IMG/VR virus record: IMGVR_UViG_3300008266_000002
Source: a virus
DNA: 64,000 nt
Direction: 5' to 3' (one strand)
The position numbers and the translations under genes are program-made. Positions within the stretch are counted from its first letter, which is position 1, and each line of letters begins with the position of its first letter. Under the pieces are notes generated by a model that was not told where the DNA came from, searched no databases, and saw only the letters and a list, made by a program, of their open reading frames with translations. Positions 7,565 through 64,000 of the stretch are shown here, in pieces.

Positions 7565-7981
7565 ATGAAACTTATAAACCTCATACCACTAAAAGAGCTT
7601 GCAGTTGAAGATGTATCGGCAACAGAGCCAGAAATGATCGCAACTCCATACTTTCGTGAATTCCAGACCGTTCATGGATATAGACCAGTGTTTAAATATA
7701 TTGGTAATAAAGGTGACCAAATGATCTTTGTTGCTGACGTAAATGATTTCGGCATGTTGGATATGATTATTACAGATGCAAAATTATTTGCCAAAGTAAC
7801 AGAAAAAGAAGCTACTTTTGGTATAGTTTACACTTTATCGGGTCTTGAGCAGTTTGATGCCACGGTATGTAAGATGAAACAAAAAAACGGTCAAATTGAG
7901 CGTTTAATGTTTGACAATAAAGATAAGAAAAATTTTGATGCTAAAACAACTAATTTCGTTGACTTATTAGATAAACAATAA
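7565..7981 (+). CDS. Hypothetical protein with MKLINLIPLKE leader
   Basis: Preceded by TATTTATA at 7544. Confidence 0.6.
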   Translation: MKLINLIPLKELAVEDVSATEPEMIATPYFREFQTVHGYRPVFKYIGNKGDQMIFVADVNDFGMLDMIITDAKLFAKVTEKEATFGIVYTLSGLEQFDATVCKMKQKNGQIERLMFDNKDKKNFDAKTTNFVDLLDKQ

Positions 7982-52195: not shown

Positions 52196-52445
52196 AACAA
52201 AAGGGAGCTTAGTTGAACAGCTCCAACAAAAGTTTGGTATCGCTGTAACTGGCGAGTATGATCAAATGACAAGAGTGGCTATTATTGGTTGGCAGCTAGA
52301 AAGAGCCTTACCAGCGACTGGTGCTATTGATGAATCCATGTGGATTGAAATTTTTGGAAGTCTTCCACAAGTAGAACAAGAAGAAAAAGTTACAACTAAA
52401 AAATCTAGAAAAAATGATAGTGAGGTTCAAGAAACTGAGTCCTAA
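52182..52445 (+). CDS. Hypothetical protein
   Basis: 87-aa ORF overlapping both neighbours. Confidence 0.5.
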   Translation: MILNETKGSLVEQLQQKFGIAVTGEYDQMTRVAIIGWQLERALPATGAIDESMWIEIFGSLPQVEQEEKVTTKKSRKNDSEVQETES

Positions 52446-52842
52446 CGCAGTTACTCCAAGTTATGCAAAACCTGGTGATGCAGGATTGGATTTAACAGCT
52501 ATTTCAATGCAAGTTGTGGATCAAGGAGTTTATGGTTATGTTGAGTATGGTACTGGAATAGCTGTTGAAATTCCACAAGGTTATGTAGGATTAATATATC
52601 CAAGAAGTTCAATCAGTAACACAGGAATGATGTTGAGTAATAGTGTAGGTGTTGTTGATTCTGGTTATAGAGGTGAGATCAAGTTTCGATTCAAATGGGT
52701 TAATCATACAGCAATGTATAACCTTGGAGATCGTATTGGTCAAATGATTATAGTACCATATCCAACCATTCAACTTGAAGAAGTGCTTGAGTTAAGCTCT
52801 AGTGAAAGAGGCAATGGAGGATTCGGTTCTTCAGGATCGTAG
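52414..52842 (+). CDS. dut: Trimeric dUTPase
   Basis: All five motifs present: GDAGLDL, PRSS, GVVDSGYRGEI, RIGQ, RGNGGFGSSG. Confidence 0.95.
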   Translation: MIVRFKKLSPNAVTPSYAKPGDAGLDLTAISMQVVDQGVYGYVEYGTGIAVEIPQGYVGLIYPRSSISNTGMMLSNSVGVVDSGYRGEIKFRFKWVNHTAMYNLGDRIGQMIIVPYPTIQLEEVLELSSSERGNGGFGSSGS

Positions 52843-54784: not shown

Positions 54785-55570
54785 ATGAAACTATCTCAAT
54801 TCAGACGCCTTATAAAGGAAGAAATTAAAAAAGTACTAAAAGAGGCTGCAAACCCCAAAGTAATAGCAGCTATTAATAAAAATAAAGCAGCACTCACAGC
54901 AGCTATTAAAAACCGATTAGCTAATGATTGGGATGAGGAGGCTTCTGACGCTGTAGAAGCTTTGCTGAAAAAAACAGCATTAGAAGCTGGCTTACCTAAA
55001 GCCTATGTCAACAAGTATCCTTGGATGGAGAACTATGCAGTACCTGATGAGAGTACTGTTGCAAAGGATCTTAGCAACTTACAAGGACATTTTGAAGATG
55101 CCCTTAATGATCCTGATATTATGACTGCTACGGCAAAATCGGGGTCTAATACACAACAGACTCGTGATGTGTATATGAAGGCAGCTAGTCAAGGCGTATA
55201 TCATCTTGGTCTAAGCTTCCAACCTGCAATTAAGAAGAGGGTAGAAGATGCTATAACTCGCGGATCTAATCTTAAGGAATGGTTAGATACTGAGTTCATT
55301 GTCGTAAAGGATGGACCAAAAACCTATGCAGTTTTTATGCCTGTAGGTAGGACAAATGATCCAGTTGGAGTTGTAGAACTTAGGAATAGCAAAATCGGGG
55401 CAGATGTAAATGACAACAGCATCAAAAGCAAGTTAGTTGCAAAAATAACACGAGCAGGACTTGGAGATTTTAATACAAGAAACAAATTGTTTAGCCTTCA
55501 GAATCCAGCAAAAACTGGAGAGGTACAAGTGCCAGATGCCTCTCAAATACAAAGCGAGCTTAGTCGATAA
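54785..55570 (+). CDS. Leader-tagged cassette protein 5 (MKLSQFRRLIKEEIKKVLKE)
   Basis: TATTTATA at 54740; CTTAGT-loop hairpin downstream. Confidence 0.7.
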   Translation: MKLSQFRRLIKEEIKKVLKEAANPKVIAAINKNKAALTAAIKNRLANDWDEEASDAVEALLKKTALEAGLPKAYVNKYPWMENYAVPDESTVAKDLSNLQGHFEDALNDPDIMTATAKSGSNTQQTRDVYMKAASQGVYHLGLSFQPAIKKRVEDAITRGSNLKEWLDTEFIVVKDGPKTYAVFMPVGRTNDPVGVVELRNSKIGADVNDNSIKSKLVAKITRAGLGDFNTRNKLFSLQNPAKTGEVQVPDASQIQSELSR

Positions 55571-56167: not shown

Positions 56168-56632
56168 ATGACTTATCAATCAACAAAACTATTTGACGGA
56201 TTTAGTACAGTGTTTCGTCAATGGGCTGCAGAAGGAACACACTGTAAGTATCTACACGGTTATGATGTAGAAATTAAAGTTACATTTGAGGGAGAACTTG
56301 ACCATCGTAATTGGGTATGGGACTTTGGAGGAATGAAAAGAGCAAAAGGTACAATCGATGGTATCAATCCTAAGACATGGTTTGATTACATGTTTGATCA
56401 TACTACTGTTATCGCTCCAGATGATCCTGAGTTACCAATCTTTGAAGAGCTGCACAGAAAAGGAGTAATACAACTTCGCATATTGGAAGGACCAGTAGGA
56501 GCAGAGAAGTTTGCAAAGTTTGTATATGACAAAGTAAACGCATTTGTGCAACAAGAAACAGATGGTCGTGTAAGAGTAGTAGAAGTAGAATTTTTTGAAA
56601 ACAAAAGAAATAGTGCAATTTATAAACCTTAA
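56168..56632 (+). CDS. queD: 6-carboxy-5,6,7,8-tetrahydropterin synthase
   Basis: HCKYLHGY, WVWDFG, FDHT, GAEKFA and E.FEN motifs. Confidence 0.9.
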   Translation: MTYQSTKLFDGFSTVFRQWAAEGTHCKYLHGYDVEIKVTFEGELDHRNWVWDFGGMKRAKGTIDGINPKTWFDYMFDHTTVIAPDDPELPIFEELHRKGVIQLRILEGPVGAEKFAKFVYDKVNAFVQQETDGRVRVVEVEFFENKRNSAIYKP

Positions 56633-56636
56633 TATT

Positions 56637-56855
56637 ATGGAACAACAAACATTTTCACTTTATGAGTATCTTGGACAGGCAGCTGGATCAACTCTAGGAA
56701 AGCAAGTATATGAAGCTGCAGTAACTAAAGGAGTGCAAGTAACAACCCACAATGTCAGTACAAGAACGTACTCAGGTAAAATTCTAAGATACCCTAAAGA
56801 ATTCTTAGATGAGTATTTCGCAAAATTATATGTCGATACAATGATGTATCGCTAA
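56637..56855 (+). CDS. Small conserved hypothetical protein
   Basis: SLYEYLGQAAG...YSGKILRYPKEFLDEYF; ATG 56637 preferred. Confidence 0.6.
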   Translation: MEQQTFSLYEYLGQAAGSTLGKQVYEAAVTKGVQVTTHNVSTRTYSGKILRYPKEFLDEYFAKLYVDTMMYR

Positions 56856-56877
56856 TTGATCAGTTTAATAATAAAAT

Positions 56878-57660
56878 ATGAAACCAGGTAGAATAACAGA
56901 TTATAATAAAAAACTTCCAATCGTTGAACTTTACTATTGTGTACAGAGTGAAGCTTCACGTGCAGGATATCCTACTGTAGCAATAAGAACCACAGGCTGT
57001 ACTCACAGATGTTGGTTCGGTGAAGGAGGATGGTGTGATAGTTGGTATACAAGTATCCATCCAGAGAAAGGAGGATTCACATTCAATGACATCGTAAAGA
57101 TGTATGATGATAGACCAGATGTAAAAGAGATGATGTTAACTGGTGGATCACCAACTATGCATGCTGACTTAGTAAATGAATTGACTCACTTCGCACATGA
57201 GAGAGGTATTATCATTACAATTGAAACGGAAGGTAGTCATTTTATTGAAACAGATTATCCAATTGATTTAATTTCACTATCACCTAAGTTTAGTAACTCT
57301 GTTCCTAAGTTAGGAGTGCTAACTCCAAAAGGTGTTGTGGTAGATCAGAAAATGATTGATCAACATAACAAGCTAAGACTTAATAAAGAGGCTATCAAGC
57401 AAACCTTAGCTTATCATAAAGACTACCATTACAAACCAGTATGCAATCCAGTAGAGATGCCTGAAGTATGGAACGAGATCGAAGAGTTTAGAATTGAGAT
57501 GGGTATTCCTAAAAACAAAACTTGGATAATGCCTCCAGGTGACAATCGTCAAGAGCTTATTAGAGTGTATCCAATGGTTATTGATTTTTGTACTGAGAAT
57601 GGTTATAATTTCACCGGTCGTGAGCATATCATCGCTTACGATACTAAAAGAGGAGTGTAA
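56878..57660 (+). CDS. queE: 7-carboxy-7-deazaguanine synthase (radical SAM)
   Basis: VQSE, RTTGCTHRCWFGEGGWCDS, LTGGSP, IETEG and SLSPK motifs. Confidence 0.9.
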   Translation: MKPGRITDYNKKLPIVELYYCVQSEASRAGYPTVAIRTTGCTHRCWFGEGGWCDSWYTSIHPEKGGFTFNDIVKMYDDRPDVKEMMLTGGSPTMHADLVNELTHFAHERGIIITIETEGSHFIETDYPIDLISLSPKFSNSVPKLGVLTPKGVVVDQKMIDQHNKLRLNKEAIKQTLAYHKDYHYKPVCNPVEMPEVWNEIEEFRIEMGIPKNKTWIMPPGDNRQELIRVYPMVIDFCTENGYNFTGREHIIAYDTKRGV

Positions 57661-57661
57661 T

Positions 57662-57838
57662 ATGCACGAAGTACTTCACATTATAGGTTTGTGTCCAGAT
57701 AGTATGGCACACTTTGATTTATTAGATTTAATTGTTGCAAACAATCCAATTATTGGGTATCTTAATGTTATTAACTTTCAAAATATAAAATACAATGTTA
57801 TTAAACGCTTATCAGGTAGAGGATCTACTACAAACTAA
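57662..57838 (+). CDS. Small hypothetical protein
   Basis: ATG right after the queE stop (MHEVLHIIGLCPDS...). Confidence 0.4.
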   Translation: MHEVLHIIGLCPDSMAHFDLLDLIVANNPIIGYLNVINFQNIKYNVIKRLSGRGSTTN

Positions 57839-58277
57839 TGGCAAAGGGGCAAAAGCTCAAGTAGGCTATGACCTAACACTTAAAGGAGTAAAAAAGATTA
57901 ATGGTGGGATGGTATTGAGTGACAAGACAGAGGTTGATCAATATACTGAAGTATCACCAATCGTATCAGGTACTGGAAAGTTTTTATACAAACTAGAGCC
58001 AGGAACTTATAGCTTAACTTTTGAACAAGGTGTTAAGTTAGATAATAATCATACTGCATTCATTAGACATCGCTCTAGTGTACTGCGTTGCGGTGGTATT
58101 ATTACAAGTGGAGTTTACGATCCGGGTTTTGAAGTGGATGAAATGGGTGGTGTATTAATTGCAACCCAAACTATATTAATTGAGAAAGGTGCCAGAGTAG
58201 CTCAGATCATTATTATGGAAAATAATCCAGCTGAATTATACGATGGTCAATGGCAAAAAGGTAAGGATTTAAAATAA
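57795..58277 (+). CDS. dCTP-deaminase/dUTPase-fold protein (second trimeric dUTPase-fold gene)
   Basis: GYDLTL, RSS, GVYDPGF, RVAQI and YDGQWQ motifs. Confidence 0.8.
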   Translation: MLLNAYQVEDLLQTNGKGAKAQVGYDLTLKGVKKINGGMVLSDKTEVDQYTEVSPIVSGTGKFLYKLEPGTYSLTFEQGVKLDNNHTAFIRHRSSVLRCGGIITSGVYDPGFEVDEMGGVLIATQTILIEKGARVAQIIIMENNPAELYDGQWQKGKDLK

Positions 58278-58339
58278 GAAAAGCGTTGGTTTCTAAAACA
58301 AAAGGGTGATATTTATATAGAAACAAATCACACTCAAAC

Positions 58340-58894
58340 ATGAAATTATCACAATTCAAAAAACTCATTAGAGAGGAGATTCAAAAAGTCCTTAGAGAAG
58401 GTCAAGAAACAACATTATCCCAACTGCAGGTTGGTGATAAGTTTAGTATTCTTGAGGATGCATTAGTAGTACCAGCCAACACAGGATATAGTAGTACTTA
58501 TAACCTATCCTATTCAAAGTACAAAGATTTAATCTTCGAAGTAGTTAAACTCAACCCAAAAACTATGGTATGCATACCATACAATAAGGATGGAAAGTAT
58601 CCAGATAATGTTGCAGAGAAACTTAACGATCCATATGGGACTTGGCATGTCGCTGGTAAAACACGACAAGATCTACAACCTCCAATATTGCCATCATCAG
58701 TAGTACTTAATACGGCGAATCTTAACATGTCAGACTCGGCTGTAGCAGATATTATCACAAAACAAAATGCATGGGAAAATGGAGAACGTCCAAAATATGA
58801 CTTTAAGGATAACTTTGAAGGACCAACTTACAATAAAATATTGTTAGTACAATTTGCACCCCACAAAAAAGATGCGCGAGTAATGACAAAATAA
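58340..58894 (+). CDS. Leader-tagged cassette protein 6 (MKLSQFKKLIREEIQKVLRE)
   Basis: TATTTATA at 58310; interrupts the deazaguanine cluster. Confidence 0.7.
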   Translation: MKLSQFKKLIREEIQKVLREGQETTLSQLQVGDKFSILEDALVVPANTGYSSTYNLSYSKYKDLIFEVVKLNPKTMVCIPYNKDGKYPDNVAEKLNDPYGTWHVAGKTRQDLQPPILPSSVVLNTANLNMSDSAVADIITKQNAWENGERPKYDFKDNFEGPTYNKILLVQFAPHKKDARVMTK

Positions 58895-58898
58895 AAAG

Positions 58899-58937
58899 AA
58901 AAAGGCTTGCTTCGGTAAGCCTTTTTTTGTATCTTTA
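58899..58937 (+). terminator. UUCG-tetraloop terminator overlapping a Bacteroidota-type promoter
   Basis: AAAAAGGCTTGC-TTCG-GTAAGCCTTTTT; CTTG(58906)-N20-TATCTTTA(58930). Confidence 0.8.
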
Positions 58938-58964
58938 AGTTATAATATAAAACACAATAAGGTT

Positions 58965-59306
58965 ATGAAAAAATTTATTGAAGTAAGACTAGACATTGAA
59001 GGTCTTCACAACTGGCCAGATTGTAATCTGCCTCATGTAGAATACCTCAAGTATCCACACAGACACACGTTTGTTATTCATTGTAGAGTAGAAGTCTCTC
59101 ATGGAAATCGTGACGTTGAGTTTATCGATTTCAAACACAATATTAAACAATTTATTGCAAAACGTTGGTATGATCCAACTTATGGCTGTTGTAACTTTGG
59201 TTCAATGAGCTGTGAAATGATCGCAGAAACTTTATTAGATCAATTTGGACTCTGTAGATGTTCAGTGTCTGAAGATAATGAATTTTGGGGGATTGTAGAG
59301 CTATGA
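58965..59306 (+). CDS. QueD-like T-fold protein (DpdL-like, putative CDG decarboxylase)
   Basis: EGLHNW, LKYPHRHTF (LxxxHRHxF instead of QueD CxxxHGH), SCEMIAE and VSEDNE motifs. Confidence 0.65.
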   Translation: MKKFIEVRLDIEGLHNWPDCNLPHVEYLKYPHRHTFVIHCRVEVSHGNRDVEFIDFKHNIKQFIAKRWYDPTYGCCNFGSMSCEMIAETLLDQFGLCRCSVSEDNEFWGIVEL

Positions 59307-59770
59307 TACAAACAAAGAAGGTAGTACTACTATTTGGAAAGATTTGCAGTGGTAAAAGCACATATGCAGATGCATTATGTTTTGTCACTAAAGCAAAGCG
59401 CATTACAGTGTCAGATATTGTAAAAAGAATATCAGGCAAAGCAACTCGAAGTGAATTACAAGACACAGCTCATATGGATCAACTCATAACACATGAGCTT
59501 GCTGCTGAATGTAAAAAGTATGATAAGGTTATTGTGGATGGCATTAGACAGGTTAGTATTGTGGAAGGTATGATAAACTATTTTGGTGCAGAGAACATTG
59601 ACATGGTTTGGTTAGAGGTTCCAGACGAAGTACGTAGACATAGATTCTATAGTAGGTCAGTATCAAAGGATGATATTACATTTGAGGAGGCCGATAAAAG
59701 AGATGAGAAATTAGGGCTGTTAGAGTTGCAAAATACACTAAAAAGTTCCTATATTGTTATAAATAATTAA
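59303..59770 (+). CDS. P-loop nucleoside monophosphate kinase-like protein
   Basis: GKICSGKST, IVDGIRQ and lid-type R..R...R; ATG 59303 overlaps the previous stop. Confidence 0.75.
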   Translation: MIQTKKVVLLFGKICSGKSTYADALCFVTKAKRITVSDIVKRISGKATRSELQDTAHMDQLITHELAAECKKYDKVIVDGIRQVSIVEGMINYFGAENIDMVWLEVPDEVRRHRFYSRSVSKDDITFEEADKRDEKLGLLELQNTLKSSYIVINN

Positions 59771-59784
59771 ACAAATAAAGTTAT

Positions 59785-60426
59785 ATGCAACTACTAAAAA
59801 AGGCTAATGGTAACCTTCCTCGTACGGATGAGGAGAAAAAACAAATGATTGATAAAGCTGCAGAGTATTATGGTCAGTTTCTAAATGCATTAGGATTTGA
59901 TTGGGCAGCTGATCCACACTCAGCCAATACTCCAAGAAGAGTGGCTAAAGCATGGGTTAATGACTTAATTGCTGGATCTATAAATGAGGAGCCGGAGATC
60001 ACAGCTTTCCCTAATGATGAGGGATATACTGGATTAATTTGTCAGACTAGAATACCAGTTATGAGTATGTGTGCTCATCATAATCTAACATTCTCAGGAG
60101 TAGCTCATGTAGCTTATTTGCCAGGTAAAGAGAAGAATGATATGGTAGTTGGATTGAGTAAGCTTAATCGTATTGTTGATTTCTATTCTCGTAGACCAAA
60201 TATTCAAGAGTCTCTTACAAAACAAATTCACGATCATATTGATAGACTGTGTATTGGTAATAGAGGTGTCGCTGTTGTTATTGAATCACAGCACAATTGT
60301 GTGAAGTGTAGAGGTATTAAGCAAGACTCAGTAATGAAAACTTCACAGATGTCTGGATACTTCTGGACTAATGAAATTGGCACTCGCCAGGAATTTTTTA
60401 ACTTAATCGATCAAAGTAGATATTAG
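59785..60426 (+). CDS. folE: GTP cyclohydrolase I
   Basis: TPRRVAK, SMCAHH, GLSKLNR, RPNIQE and HNCVKCRG motifs. Confidence 0.95.
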   Translation: MQLLKKANGNLPRTDEEKKQMIDKAAEYYGQFLNALGFDWAADPHSANTPRRVAKAWVNDLIAGSINEEPEITAFPNDEGYTGLICQTRIPVMSMCAHHNLTFSGVAHVAYLPGKEKNDMVVGLSKLNRIVDFYSRRPNIQESLTKQIHDHIDRLCIGNRGVAVVIESQHNCVKCRGIKQDSVMKTSQMSGYFWTNEIGTRQEFFNLIDQSRY

Positions 60427-60427
60427 T

Positions 60428-61216
60428 ATGGACTTTTACGTTATATCACCAGTCAGTAACTTAGAACCAATGAAGTTGGGAGATAGGATATTTGTACTCG
60501 CTCACTTGTGGGTACAATTTCCTGAATACAGAGAGTTTATTCTGCAACGAAAGGCAGAAGGAGCTTTCATTACATTAGACAACTCAGCTGCTGAAAGAGC
60601 TTTAGTAACTGAGGATGTACTGATACAAATTTGCCATGAACTCAAGCCTAACGAAGTTATTGCACCTGACGTACTGTTTGATAAAGACGCTACGATCAAA
60701 AACGCAATGAGCTTTGCTGAAAGGTTAGTGGGTGAAGGTCTTGAAGATACTGTGGAGATGTTCTTCTGTCCGCAAGGGAAAACAAAGCAGGATTGGCTAG
60801 AGTGTTACTTGTGGGGATTAACTCAAAAGTATATTCACACAATCGGCTTTTCTAAGATTGCAATTCCACAAGCATGGTTGGATAACTGGAAAGATGATCA
60901 GGGTATTAAAGAAGCTCGTCACATGGCGTATGATTATCTCAAAGAGCGTAATCTGTTATTGAAGCCAATTCACTGTCTTGGTCAGGGAGATCCAACTGAG
61001 TTTGCTTATTATGATCATCCAATGATGAGAAGTACAGATTCAGTGTATCCGATCCTAGCTGCAACATTAGGACAAGACTTTACAAAGGATCATACTACGA
61101 GAACTCCAACACCACACAACTTTCTAGAGACGTGCGATATGTCGATGGTTGATGTTGGCATCATTAAGAGAAATGTAGCGTTCTTGAGAGAGCAATGCCA
61201 CTCAATTAAAAACTAG
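60428..61216 (+). CDS. TGT/DpdA-like TIM-barrel transglycosylase
   Basis: TLDNSAAE, APDVL, CPQG, HCLG and RSTDS match the DS/D/QG/HxLG/DS order of TGT-family enzymes; follows folE. Confidence 0.6.
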   Translation: MDFYVISPVSNLEPMKLGDRIFVLAHLWVQFPEYREFILQRKAEGAFITLDNSAAERALVTEDVLIQICHELKPNEVIAPDVLFDKDATIKNAMSFAERLVGEGLEDTVEMFFCPQGKTKQDWLECYLWGLTQKYIHTIGFSKIAIPQAWLDNWKDDQGIKEARHMAYDYLKERNLLLKPIHCLGQGDPTEFAYYDHPMMRSTDSVYPILAATLGQDFTKDHTTRTPTPHNFLETCDMSMVDVGIIKRNVAFLREQCHSIKN

Positions 61217-61239
61217 TATATTTATACTAAAAAGATTTA

Positions 61240-61944
61240 ATGAAGATATCACAACTAAAAAAGCTTATTCGAGAGGTTGTTCGTAATGAACTGGGGCTGG
61301 ATGAAAAACTAGCACTTAAAAGCTATACTGAATATGCCAAATTAGTTACTCAAGCCTATGTAGATGCACCACCTTACGAGTCGTCAGCTGTGAGTCATTG
61401 GAATGCTCTAAGAACTTCAAACTACACTTGGTGGAAACGTCTTATTAGTGAGGTAGAGGTAATTTTTGTTAGTGGAGAATCTAAATACAAGAATAAACCA
61501 AGCACACTTAGTATTGCAGGAAAAGCGTATCCACTAGAGTATTTGCAAGGAGGGCAACCTTATGATACAGCATCTCAGATGGCCAACTCCTATAAAAATG
61601 AAGGAAAGCTGTATATATCAATTGACTACTCTGATCACCCATTATGGTCTGTAGAGGATAATATTGTTTTTCGTACAGTGCATGATTATATTGTACATAT
61701 TAGAGGTGGATTTGAATTTGGGCTTAAAGGGGAGTTGGGGTCATATAACCTACACGCTAAGTTAGCACCAAAGGCTGCATTGCCTGCTCTGTTTACAGAA
61801 ATTGTTGGTCAAGCTGCTTATGCAGTAACAAATGGAGATTTTCCATCCCAACAGAAGATTGCCATACTTCCTGGGTTTAATTATCTGAATGTGGGTGAGG
61901 TAGAGGGCTACGATATTAAAGATAAAACCTTAGTTAAGAAATAA
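61240..61944 (+). CDS. Leader-tagged cassette protein 7 with HDxxxH/E putative metal-binding domain
   Basis: MKISQLKKLIREVVRNELGLDE leader; FRTVHDYIVH...GE...H...ALFTE; TATTTATA at 61219. Confidence 0.65.
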   Translation: MKISQLKKLIREVVRNELGLDEKLALKSYTEYAKLVTQAYVDAPPYESSAVSHWNALRTSNYTWWKRLISEVEVIFVSGESKYKNKPSTLSIAGKAYPLEYLQGGQPYDTASQMANSYKNEGKLYISIDYSDHPLWSVEDNIVFRTVHDYIVHIRGGFEFGLKGELGSYNLHAKLAPKAALPALFTEIVGQAAYAVTNGDFPSQQKIAILPGFNYLNVGEVEGYDIKDKTLVKK

Positions 61945-61985
61945 AACACGCCCCCAGACAAAAAAGAGCCAACCTAGTGTTGGCT
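61943..61985 (+). repeat. 43-bp direct repeat, copy 1, containing the CTAGT-loop terminator
   Basis: aaaacacgcccccagacaaaaaagagccaacctagtgttggct. Confidence 0.9.
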
Positions 61986-62036
61986 ATTTTTAATTAGAGG
62001 TATATATTTATAAGTAAATTACAAACATAAACAAAA

Positions 62037-62294
62037 ATGAAAACCTCAGAATTTAGAAAATTAATCCGCGAAGAAGTTCGTAAAGTATTAAAAGAAGATA
62101 ACACTGCAGACTTAAATGCTCTCGAACAAAAATTAAGGAGCCATGATTGGTATTACATGTATAGTGATGATCATAGTGCTTATCTAGAGGGCTCACAAGA
62201 AGCTTCTGATATTCAAGCTTTAGTGGATAAATTAGGTGAAGAGGGTAGAGAGCTTTATCAGCAAGCTTTTGATAAACACTTCAAACGATCCTAG
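62037..62294 (+). CDS. Leader-tagged cassette protein 8 (MKTSEFRKLIREEVRKVLKE)
   Basis: TATTTATA at 62003; payload with HDWYYMYSDD motif; bracketed by the direct repeats. Confidence 0.7.
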   Translation: MKTSEFRKLIREEVRKVLKEDNTADLNALEQKLRSHDWYYMYSDDHSAYLEGSQEASDIQALVDKLGEEGRELYQQAFDKHFKRS

Positions 62295-62306
62295 ATGAGA
62301 TTTTAA

Positions 62307-62349
62307 AAAACACGCCCCCAGACAGAAAATAGCCAACCTAGTGTTGGCT
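62307..62349 (+). repeat. 43-bp direct repeat, copy 2 (41/43 identical to copy 1)
   Basis: aaaacacgcccccagacagaaaatagccaacctagtgttggct. Confidence 0.9.
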
Positions 62350-62374
62350 TTTTGATTTTTTAGTAGTATATTTA
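62343..62374 (+). promoter_or_regulatory. Bacteroidota-type promoter of polA, with its -33 element inside the hairpin arm
   Basis: GTTG(62343)-N20-TATATTTA(62367). Confidence 0.6.
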
Positions 62375-62394
62375 GGTTATAAAAATAACAACAC

Positions 62395-64000
62395 ATGAGC
62401 AAAAGTTACAAGATTATTACAGATCAAGCTGGTGTAGTAGAGTTAGCTAACTACATCAAGAACGGAAACATTATTGCGTACGATATCGAGACCACCAGTG
62501 TCAATCCAAGAACGGGAATGATCATTGGTTTCTCTGTATCTGCAAACATCGATGAAGGGTATTACTTTCCAACCAGATATTGGGATAATGAGAGTCAAGC
62601 TCTTATAGATTCCTACATCGGAGGTAAGAAGTGTGATGATATAGCTAAACAACTGATCACCTTACTCAAAGGTAAAAAGCTGGTCATGCATAACGGATCA
62701 TTCGATATTCGATTCACTAAAAACTTTTATGGTATTGACTTGAGAGAGGATCTATATTGTGATACGATGTTACTTACACACACTCTTCGAGAGGATGGTC
62801 CTTTCGGTTTGAAGCCATTAGCAATAGAATTACAACACGAGTTAGGAATCAATGCTGAGAAGGAAGCCAACGAAGAGCAGGTCTTAATGAAAGAGAATAT
62901 CAAAAAGAATGGTGGTAGTACTTCAAAAGAAAACTATGAAATCTACAAAGCTGATATGGAATTGCTAGGAAACTATGCAGCAGCCGATACAGACTTGACT
63001 CTACGATTGATGACATACTTTCTGCCAATTCTTAAAGAACAAGAGTTGTGGGATTTCTTTTTTGTGGATGAGGTAATGCCACTCTACAAGACAGTAACAA
63101 TACAGATGGAAGAGACTGGTACTGAGCTTGACATGGAATTGATTCGCAAGACTAAGAATGATATCACAAAGGATCTTGAAAGGTTAGAACGTGAGATCAT
63201 CGATGACCTTATGGCTATTCCAGAAGTTAAACAATGGGTTATGTTTAAAGCCACAAAAGCGTTCCCACCAAAGAAGAGAGGTCGATATGCATTAGCCATC
63301 AATCAAATAGAAGCTGTCAATCGTAAAGGTGTTGTGGATTTTCTTGCCACTGGAGACGAAAGCTATCTCGATCCAAGAGATGCAGTGAAGGTTAGTCTCG
63401 ATTTGTGGAAAGAAAAAGAGGGTAGCTATCTTAACATCAGTAGTAAACAACAGTTAGGAGATATTGTATTCAAGTATCTTAAAATCAAACCTCTCAGTCA
63501 AACTCGTAAAGGTACAGATCAATTTAATGACGATATGATCGAGCACTTGAGTAAAAGTTACGAATGGGCTGCTAAGCTACGAGACTATAACAAGCTAAAT
63601 AAGATCAACTCAGCCTACATTGATCGTTTCTTGGATGGTAATGAGGATGGAAGATACTATTGGTATTTCAAGCAACATGGGACTACTTCAGGTCGTTTTA
63701 GCTCAGATTGTCAACAAATGCCTCGTGTATTAGAAGAAGGTGAGGTGAGTGATTTAGTATTAAGATACAACAACATTCTAAGAAGTTTCTTGAAAGCTGA
63801 GGATGGTCGTAGGTTTATTATTTGTGACCAATCATCTCTAGAACCAAGAGTGTTTGCTTCAGTAAGTAATGACCCTAACCTAATTAATGTATTCTTAGAC
63901 AATGAGGATCTTTATAGTAGAGTAGCTATACAAGCATTCAAACTAAAAGGAATGTCGGCTAAGAAGAACGATGAGAACTATGTCAAGAAGGTTAGACCTG
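62395..64000 (+). CDS. polA: Family A DNA polymerase with 3'-5' exonuclease, 3'-truncated by the window and absent from the ORF track
   Basis: MSKSYKII...; ExoI AYDIETTS, ExoII HNGSFD, ExoIII YAAADT, HGTTSGRFSS, motif A ICDQSSLEPRV. Confidence 0.92.
   Translation, partial: MSKSYKIITDQAGVVELANYIKNGNIIAYDIETTSVNPRTGMIIGFSVSANIDEGYYFPTRYWDNESQALIDSYIGGKKCDDIAKQLITLLKGKKLVMHNGSFDIRFTKNFYGIDLREDLYCDTMLLTHTLREDGPFGLKPLAIELQHELGINAEKEANEEQVLMKENIKKNGGSTSKENYEIYKADMELLGNYAAADTDLTLRLMTYFLPILKEQELWDFFFVDEVMPLYKTVTIQMEETGTELDMELIRKTKNDITKDLERLEREIIDDLMAIPEVKQWVMFKATKAFPPKKRGRYALAINQIEAVNRKGVVDFLATGDESYLDPRDAVKVSLDLWKEKEGSYLNISSKQQLGDIVFKYLKIKPLSQTRKGTDQFNDDMIEHLSKSYEWAAKLRDYNKLNKINSAYIDRFLDGNEDGRYYWYFKQHGTTSGRFSSDCQQMPRVLEEGEVSDLVLRYNNILRSFLKAEDGRRFIICDQSSLEPRVFASVSNDPNLINVFLDNEDLYSRVAIQAFKLKGMSAKKNDENYVKKVRP

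Follow-up and report, generated by a model that had tools for sequence, protein, structure and literature searches.

The last ~8 kb (positions 56168-64000) of a 64,000-nt window of DNA from the IMG/VR virus record IMGVR_UViG_3300008266_000002, which belongs to an uncultured phage with a genome of ~160 kb, carry on the + strand a 7-deazaguanine gene cluster. The composition of this cluster in the window and in its relatives suggests that guanine could be replaced in the nucleotide pool, by a pre-replicative pathway made up of the transglycosylase DpdA3, the QueD paralogue DpdL, a kinase for 7-deaza-dGMP, and a dGTP pyrophosphatase of interchangeable type. To this reading, drawn from sequences and structural models, we attribute a probability of roughly 0.45; were it to hold, DpdA3 would be the first enzyme of the TGT superfamily with a free guanine deoxynucleotide as substrate. 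The kinase invariably accompanies DpdL and DpdA3 and is in many cases fused to DpdL, and this linkage suggests that the phage builds the modified guanine as a free nucleotide ahead of DNA copying. Besides the tie of the kinase to DpdL and DpdA3, the clusters show the retention, in most lineages, of a deoxynucleoside triphosphate (dNTP) hydrolase of varying fold. No paper demonstrating or rejecting a nucleotide-level route was found in the literature searched.

Every gene named in an earlier interpretation of this DNA made from its letters alone, called here the sequence-only reading, was found at its position on the + strand (Table 1). Among them, FolE, QueD, and QueE convert GTP into 7-carboxy-7-deazaguanine (CDG), which is established chemistry. 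A tblastn scan of the window with queries from phages detected no QueC, QueF, DpdN, or phosphoribosyltransferase (PRTase), in agreement with the absence of queC and queF noted by the sequence-only reading. The wider look for queC that it had proposed was taken in four relatives of the same clade that are 96-100% complete, and both QueC (PF06508) and a canonical TGT are missing from them, QueF not having been searched there. QueC being absent, the pathway ends at CDG.

In Cellulophaga phage phiST, dG is undetectable and 2'-deoxy-7-deazaguanosine (dDG) stands in its place (Cui, Hutinet et al., NAR 2023, PMC10516641). In that work, a 115-aa phiST protein with the motif LxxxHRHxF instead of CxxxHGH was named DpdL and predicted to be a CDG decarboxylase, so that the link between the QueD paralogue and CDG decarboxylation, put forward in the sequence-only reading, is in print as a prediction only, while a 259-aa protein was named DpdA3 based on HHpred (PMC10516641). 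The same authors did not find homologues of the kinase-like gene CGPG_00066 in other 7-deazaguanine phages, proposed a post-replicative origin for every 7-deazaguanine DNA modification of this sort, and obtained no dDG upon expression of DpdA3 and DpdL in E. coli (PMC10516641).

The phiST genes are ordered QueD, QueE, FolE, MazG-like gp039, DpdL gp040, the 165-aa "ATPase" gp041, DpdA3 gp042, and polymerase, and the window holds the identical enzyme set, QueC lacking in both. The proteins are orthologous at 35-38% identity for DpdL (37% to gp040, E 4e-25), the kinase (35% to gp041, which gene order matches to CGPG_00066), and DpdA3 (38% over 256 residues to gp042, E 7e-61), and at 63% and 64% for QueD and QueE, respectively. 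The two phages also share the DpdL motif LxxxHRHxF, kept in the window and in 48/48 relatives, and the QueD motif CxxxHGY, common to the phiST clade and present in the window as CKYLHGY, a variant of CxxxHGH. They differ in that phiST has a MazG-like enzyme where the window has a trimeric dUTPase/DCD fold, that FolE is placed between the kinase and DpdA3 in the window, that an unrelated 184-aa open reading frame (ORF) is inserted there, and that phiST has a 78-kb genome with a Pol III alpha-type polymerase against ~160 kb and PolA. With FolE, QueD, and QueE but no QueC, a DpdL bearing LxxxHRHxF, and DpdA3 alongside the pathway, the region is, as judged from its sequence, a further example of the published phiST-type module for complete replacement of dG by dDG, and complete dDG replacement is the best prediction for the DNA of this uncultured phage. 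The module is abundant in environmental phages, a metagenome search returning 539 DpdA3 proteins and 116 kinase clusters at E <= 1e-30. The nearest isolated phages by DNA are Flavobacterium phage immuto and phiST, over the QueD/QueE stretch only and at 73-74%, immuto being the closest (74%).

Some variants of the base-synthesis genes can be mentioned here. In Chryseobacterium phage MA9V-3 (locus L002, 5647-6528), DpdL forms residues 187-292, the C-terminal third, of a 293-aa protein whose N-terminal 186 residues have no Pfam match and are unrelated to the 184-aa ORF of the window; the idea that this ORF corresponds to the domain fused to DpdL in MA9V-3 was rejected for lack of similarity. The published description of MA9V-3 does not mention DNA modification. 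A phiST relative (L055, 7335-7838) carries a flavodoxin between QueE and FolE, presumably as reductant for the radical-SAM enzyme QueE, and in one DpdA3 lineage (lineage 7 below; L039, 8578-9429) the non-orthologous FolE2 (PF02649) replaces FolE.

The P-loop kinase and its genomic linkage

The model of the P-loop protein (pLDDT 88) has as best structural match the AMP-bound adenylate-kinase-related protein 3lw7 from Sulfolobus (TM 0.75), followed by adenylate and UMP/CMP kinases (TM 0.71-0.75 for 3lw7 and 3h0k). Nearly all of the best matches listed are nucleoside monophosphate (NMP) kinases, and the first polynucleotide kinase, Pnk of C. thermocellum, comes at rank 42, after ~40 of them. The Walker A motif reads GKICSGKST and the invariant residues are G17/K18, R49, G80/R82/Q83 (R82 within GIRQ), and R114, the equivalence of R49, R82, and R114 with R36, R88, and R123 of adenylate kinase being based on motif resemblance only. 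The protein is NMP-kinase-like, as the sequence-only reading had called it, and its modelled fold makes it a putative NMP kinase of the adenylate/UMP-CMP kinase type. A polynucleotide kinase serving nick repair is disfavoured by the low rank of Pnk, although this rank does not exclude one because P-loop kinases are all alike. Besides, beta-elimination leaves a 5'-phosphate, and nick repair would therefore do without a kinase.

The genomic linkage of this protein was followed in both directions. In a forward scan of 70 DpdA3 loci, which group into 13 lineages at 60% identity, the kinase family is present in exactly the lineages that bear DpdL (0, 1, 3, 5, 6, 9, and, weakly, 7), and it occurs in 25/25 loci of the window clade with enough flanking sequence. 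In the reverse scan, anchored on the kinase in 65 viral loci of IMG/VR that span 9 DpdA3 clusters (60% identity), all 60 loci having more than 2.7 kb of downstream DNA carry DpdA3 at 0.4-2.6 kb downstream of the kinase, and DpdL is upstream of or fused to the kinase in 62 of the 65, the three misses lying at contig ends. Among 50,697 isolated-phage records, the kinase was found in only six (the phiST group and MA9V-3), all with DpdA3 and DpdL. Complete relatives carry a single copy of the kinase, and no other NMP-kinase-like gene, thymidylate kinase and guanylate kinase included, was found in them.

Further support for the linkage with DpdL comes from gene fusions. Longer kinase proteins with a fused partner did not turn up in a word-index search, but they did when 1.84 billion representatives were searched exhaustively with a profile: among the best 150 kinase representatives examined, all 11 proteins of at least 270 aa are DpdL-kinase fusions, and no other partner was seen. 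In lineage 3, DpdL and the kinase form a single protein. The sequence-only reading had suggested checking whether the kinase co-occurs with the cluster in relatives, and it stands up to this check, the kinase being found wherever DpdL and DpdA3 are. The linkage also offers an explanation for the failed reconstitution in E. coli, since the absence of dDG upon expression of DpdA3 and DpdL fits with missing components.

Several arrangements around the kinase are worth recording. Lineages 3 and 5 (L038, 7997-9094; L050, 8716-9861) have an ATP-dependent DNA ligase gene that separates the kinase from DpdA3, and in phiST a ligase gene directly follows the polymerase. In lineage 1 (L043, 10789-11460, and relatives, 18 loci), a bare DpdL-kinase-DpdA3 cassette is followed by a glycosyltransferase-like gene, with FolE, QueD, QueE, and any dNTPase elsewhere in the genome; in one complete 217-kb genome, FolE is ~35 kb off.

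A possible route through the nucleotide pool

The proposed pathway, which accounts most economically for the parts present throughout, would comprise five steps. In the first one, the extra DCD-fold enzyme would hydrolyze dGTP to dGMP, thereby removing the competitor and supplying the acceptor. DpdA3 would then put the deaza base in place of guanine on a free guanine deoxynucleotide, and DpdL would strip the carboxyl group, acting before the exchange on the free base or following it on the nucleotide; in the latter case, DpdL and the kinase would catalyze consecutive steps, fitting their fusion. Fourth, the dedicated NMP kinase would phosphorylate 7-deaza-dGMP, which the host guanylate kinase may handle poorly, and, finally, the host nucleoside diphosphate kinase would produce the triphosphate, to be incorporated by any replicative polymerase. 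That dGMP would be converted to 7-deaza-dGMP ahead of the kinase step is an order that we infer. If true, the nucleotide route would constitute an enzymatic source of 7-deaza-dGTP.

Comparable sets of enzymes are found in T4, which makes hydroxymethylcytosine DNA with the dCTPase gp56, the dCMP hydroxymethylase gp42, and the dNMP kinase gp1, and in the Z-genome phages with MazZ, PurZ, and DatZ. These systems have in common with the proposed one a dNTP hydrolase that excludes the canonical nucleotide while supplying the monophosphate, a modifier acting at the monophosphate level, a kinase, and complete replacement. They differ from it in that the modifying enzyme is not homologous and that base exchange at the nucleotide level has no known precedent. 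Every known route to complete base replacement is pre-replicative and passes through the nucleotide pool; a canonical base is seldom replaced completely, and the DpdA3 phages are the stated exception to this rule.

Regarding the first step, a canonical dUTPase is encoded upstream in the window, so that the dUTPase-fold gene of the cluster is an extra, second one, as rightly stated in the sequence-only reading. Its best solved relative is the probable dUTPase 9w59, and the residues R93-S94-S95, D109, F112, R134/Q137 (RxAQ), and Y149/G151/Q152 are invariant in the 32-member family. The catalytic Glu of dCTP deaminase (4xjc) aligns to G119, a column occupied by A, G, or T in 32/32 members, for which reason an identity as dCTP deaminase was rejected. 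With the hydrolase motifs kept and the deaminase Glu gone, the protein is a hydrolase by its motifs, and its sequence is read as that of a dNTP pyrophosphatase and candidate dGTPase.

The gene, present in 24/25 window-clade loci, stands in the cluster where phiST has its MazG-like gene, and the two are unrelated. The DCD fold occupies this position in the window, MA9V-3, and lineages 3 and 5; MazG does so in phiST and part of lineage 5, either fold thus occurring within this lineage; a PRA-PH/MazG-type enzyme is found in immuto and its relative L071, and an HD domain in Campylobacter phage CP220. The dNTPase role is therefore filled by unrelated folds in different lineages, most of which keep one.

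A 40%-identical paralogue of the DCD-fold gene was noticed in Bacteroides phage SJC03 (L072, 6001-7483), directly upstream of a gene with an IMPDH/GMP-reductase domain and with a canonical dUTPase 4 kb further upstream. DpdA3 was not detected in SJC03-type phages. This second guanine-nucleotide setting may belong to a different pathway, e.g., towards deoxyinosine.

In the same line, the three phages with measured complete replacement, namely phiST, CP220, and immuto, all have a P-loop NMP-kinase-like gene and a nucleoside triphosphate hydrolase within about 1.5 kb of DpdA3. In CP220 (dADG), DpdA3 lies between an HD + AAA_33 protein and an AAA_28 kinase, and the immuto cluster (fdPreQ1) consists of PRTase, FolE, PRA-PH, DpdA3, DpdN, AAA_28 kinase, QueF, and PolA, the AAA_28 kinases of these two phages being 31-33% identical. 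Like the window, immuto has DpdA3 upstream of PolA. Both phages differ from the window in having a kinase of another family, AAA_28, no DpdL, and a DpdA3 that is only 24-27% identical (24% for immuto gp206; 27% for Campylobacter phages, 26% for CP220; compared to 44% for MA9V-3), and immuto additionally has QueC, QueF, and DpdN.

The sequence-only reading had also included the adjacent PolA as the polymerase of the pathway. PolA follows DpdA3 in immuto and in lineages 0, 2, 8, 11, and 12. It does not do so in phiST, whose polymerase is of Pol III alpha type, nor in CP220, whose annotated neighbourhood is T4-like. As the polymerase types thus vary among DpdA3 phages, PolA was rejected as a specific partner. 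Of the pre-replicative idea put forward by that reading, the part resting on the kinase is supported by co-occurrence, fusion, and fitting folds, while the part given to PolA falls away.

The substrate of DpdA3 and competing explanations

The DpdA3 model, built from a 25-sequence alignment (pLDDT 94.2), matches Z. mobilis TGT in Foldseek (E 2e-8) and, by VIA-align, with Z 17.2 and a root-mean-square deviation of 3.3 Å over 234 residues, which independently confirms the HHpred-based assignment of the family; a single-sequence search against solved structures had given noise only. Thirteen columns are invariant in the 25 sequences (P8, L24, Y34, L50, D51, D81, Q116, R164, H182, L184, G185, S202, and D204). 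A weak profile match (E 0.12), used for motif alignment only, places HxL184G and SxD204S on the base-stacking L236 and the nucleophile D256 of Salmonella DpdA, and D51, D81, and Q116 are paired with TGT D102, D156, and Q203 by motif order only. Past D204, the alignment of 25 sequences shows no Cys or His that is conserved, the zinc subdomain (CxCxxC...H) thus being absent as a property of the subfamily. About 58 residues remain after the nucleophile, and the 128-residue Ins8, which makes up 30% of bacterial DpdA and bears its DNA wedge residue, has no counterpart. The model thus depicts DpdA3 as a minimal TGT barrel with the catalytic residues kept. Compared to TGT and to the DpdA of Salmonella Montevideo, it shares the TIM-barrel TGT fold, the Asp nucleophile motif, and the base-stacking Leu, but it counts ~260 residues instead of 386-436, and it is neighboured by an NMP-kinase fold where bacterial DpdA has the ParB-like partner DpdB. 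This small size, without zinc site or Ins8, makes a smaller substrate plausible, though not proven. The isoelectric point of DpdA3 (4.5-6.7, acidic in 12/13 lineages) was set aside as not decisive between DNA and nucleotide binding.

Longer DpdA3 proteins were also encountered. Five of them (P0123-P0127, 463-490 aa) have a ~206-residue LAGLIDADG part before an intact DpdA3, i.e., a fused or read-through endonuclease gene; inteins and enzyme fusions were considered for these proteins and rejected in favour of this N-terminal LAGLIDADG endonuclease.

Several observations weigh against a free-nucleotide substrate. The TGT-superfamily enzymes characterized so far are all known to work on polynucleotides. 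Unless its partner DpdB hydrolyzes ATP, bacterial DpdA shows no activity on DNA, and, by analogy, the P-loop neighbour could be a DpdB-like partner of DpdA3. The kinase tracks, and is fused to, DpdL more than DpdA3 itself, and its co-occurrence with them is partly the inheritance of one cassette. In CP220, the HD + P-loop protein resembles end-healing enzymes. Neither kinase nor dNTPase was detected within 7 kb of the DpdA3-like genes of lineages 2, 8, 11, and 12, which are short, divergent, and located beside PolA, so that about a third of the DpdA3 lineages are without these partners. Finally, a recognizable dNTPase is lacking within 8 kb in 26/65 kinase-anchored loci, the sole complete genome of this group having FolE and a DCD-fold gene elsewhere, and the link of the dNTPase to the cluster is weaker than that of the kinase.

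The main rival is the published model, held by the authors who described the family (PMC10516641), in which DpdA3 exchanges guanine for 7-deazaguanine in double-stranded DNA that is already complete. The P-loop protein would then be either an ATPase helper analogous to DpdB or a protein with an unrelated housekeeping role, and the DCD-fold protein would serve ordinary pool maintenance. The homology of DpdA3 to TGT and DpdA, with the catalytic residues of a DNA-acting DpdA, the ATP requirement of bacterial DpdA, and the DpdA3-like lineages with no kinase or dNTPase nearby are all consistent with it. We nevertheless consider it less probable than the nucleotide route. The P-loop protein, 155 residues long, has an NMP-kinase fold whose invariant arginines sit, as far as motif resemblance indicates, at the NMP-binding and LID arginine positions; it has no DNA-binding domain and is unrelated to the ParB-like DpdB. 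Where it is fused among the 150 best representatives, the partner is DpdL and in no case DpdA3. DpdA3 itself is devoid of the DNA-binding insertion Ins8 of its bacterial counterpart, DNA-level exchange leaves the interchangeable dNTPases of the cluster without a role, and the complete replacements of known route are all pre-replicative.

A role for salvage was considered as well. In such a scheme, a PRTase of the phage or the host would make the 7-deazaguanine ribonucleotide, which would pass through the cluster kinase and ribonucleotide reductase before being polymerized, DpdA3 mopping up the residual guanine in DNA. A PRTase gene (PF00156) is constant in lineages 3, 7, and 10, occurs in immuto (L073, 13924-14319), and lies directly upstream of the DCD-fold gene in 7/34 window-clade loci (L009, L012, L018, L020, L022, L023, and L028); in addition, a class II ribonucleotide reductase is encoded 5 kb upstream in the window. 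This scheme is improbable in view of the absence of a cluster PRTase from the window, phiST, and MA9V-3, and of the universality of DpdA3, which the PRTase does not share; moreover, the PRTase could equally recycle the released guanine. Further PRTase-bearing loci are L038, L039, and L071.

Finally, DpdL and the P-loop protein could together make the free base, an ATP-dependent step turning CDG, or else an intermediate of pterin type, into 7-deazaguanine. The P-loop protein would then be unconnected with the nucleotides that go into DNA. The recurrence of the DpdL-kinase fusion, the single phyletic pattern of the two genes, and the failure of DpdL and DpdA3 to give dDG in E. coli (PMC10516641) would agree with this explanation. 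We nonetheless hold it to be very improbable, given that ATP is not needed for decarboxylation and that the closest structures of the kinase bind AMP, UMP, or CMP. Phosphorylation of carboxylates or bases is not known for P-loop proteins with an NMP-kinase fold.

Gene layout of the window and inserted reading frames

The cluster consists of a single co-directional run of genes, all on the + strand (Table 1). Upstream of it, the window encodes gp32, RecA, a 5'-3' exonuclease, a DnaB-like helicase, the class II ribonucleotide reductase, the canonical dUTPase, and a ferritin-like protein, which places the cluster within a replication and nucleotide-metabolism block.

Table 1. Genes of the 7-deazaguanine cluster and the upstream dUTPase, in window coordinates
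Feature	Position	Strand	Matches and remarks
Canonical trimeric dUTPase	52414-52842	+	PF00692 3.6e-24
QueD (6-carboxytetrahydropterin synthase)	56168-56632	+	PTPS PF01242 1.4e-13; phrog_2389 4.9e-39
QueE (radical-SAM 7-carboxy-7-deazaguanine synthase)	56878-57660	+	phrog_2076 9.7e-48; TIGR03365 4e-14
Second dUTPase/DCD-fold enzyme	57795-58277	+	PF22769 1.5e-11; NF002598 4e-24 (under its curated cut-off)
184-aa ORF	58340-58894	+	No match in Pfam, PHROG, NCBIfam
DpdL, 113-aa QueD paralogue	58965-59306	+	phrog_17812 1.2e-22; LKYPHRHTF
P-loop NMP-kinase-like protein	59303-59770 (alternative start 59285)	+	AAA_33 1.2e-9
FolE (GTP cyclohydrolase I)	59785-60426	+	PF01227 7.7e-45
DpdA3-type transglycosylase, 262 aa	60428-61216	+	Likeness to phiST DpdA3, TGT fold; no Pfam match
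234-aa ORF	61240-61944	+	phrog_3170
85-aa ORF	62037-62294	+	
PolA (DNA polymerase family A), N-terminal part	62395-64000, continues past window end	+	PF00476 4.7e-28; PF01612 6.9e-14

Some of the reading frames in this run do not seem to take part in the pathway. The 184-aa ORF is missing from relatives, in which the DCD-fold gene abuts DpdL, and is probably an inserted cassette gene rather than a conserved part of the module. Likewise, the 234-aa ORF forms a singleton cluster that was not found in the other loci, and is no conserved part of the module either. Together with the 85-aa ORF and an ORF at 54785-55570, these otherwise unrelated frames share an N-terminal motif of ~20 residues, MK[LIT]S[QE][FL][KR][KR]LI[KR]E..., and each of the four is preceded by [TG]ATATTTATA at 25-45 nt upstream. 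The window contains 4 exact copies of TATATTTATA, where 0.6 would be expected, the fourth copy (7542) preceding an ORF at 7565-7981. Judging from these sequence features, the motif-sharing ORFs seem to be cassette genes that were inserted, carry their own promoter, and share an N-terminal tag.

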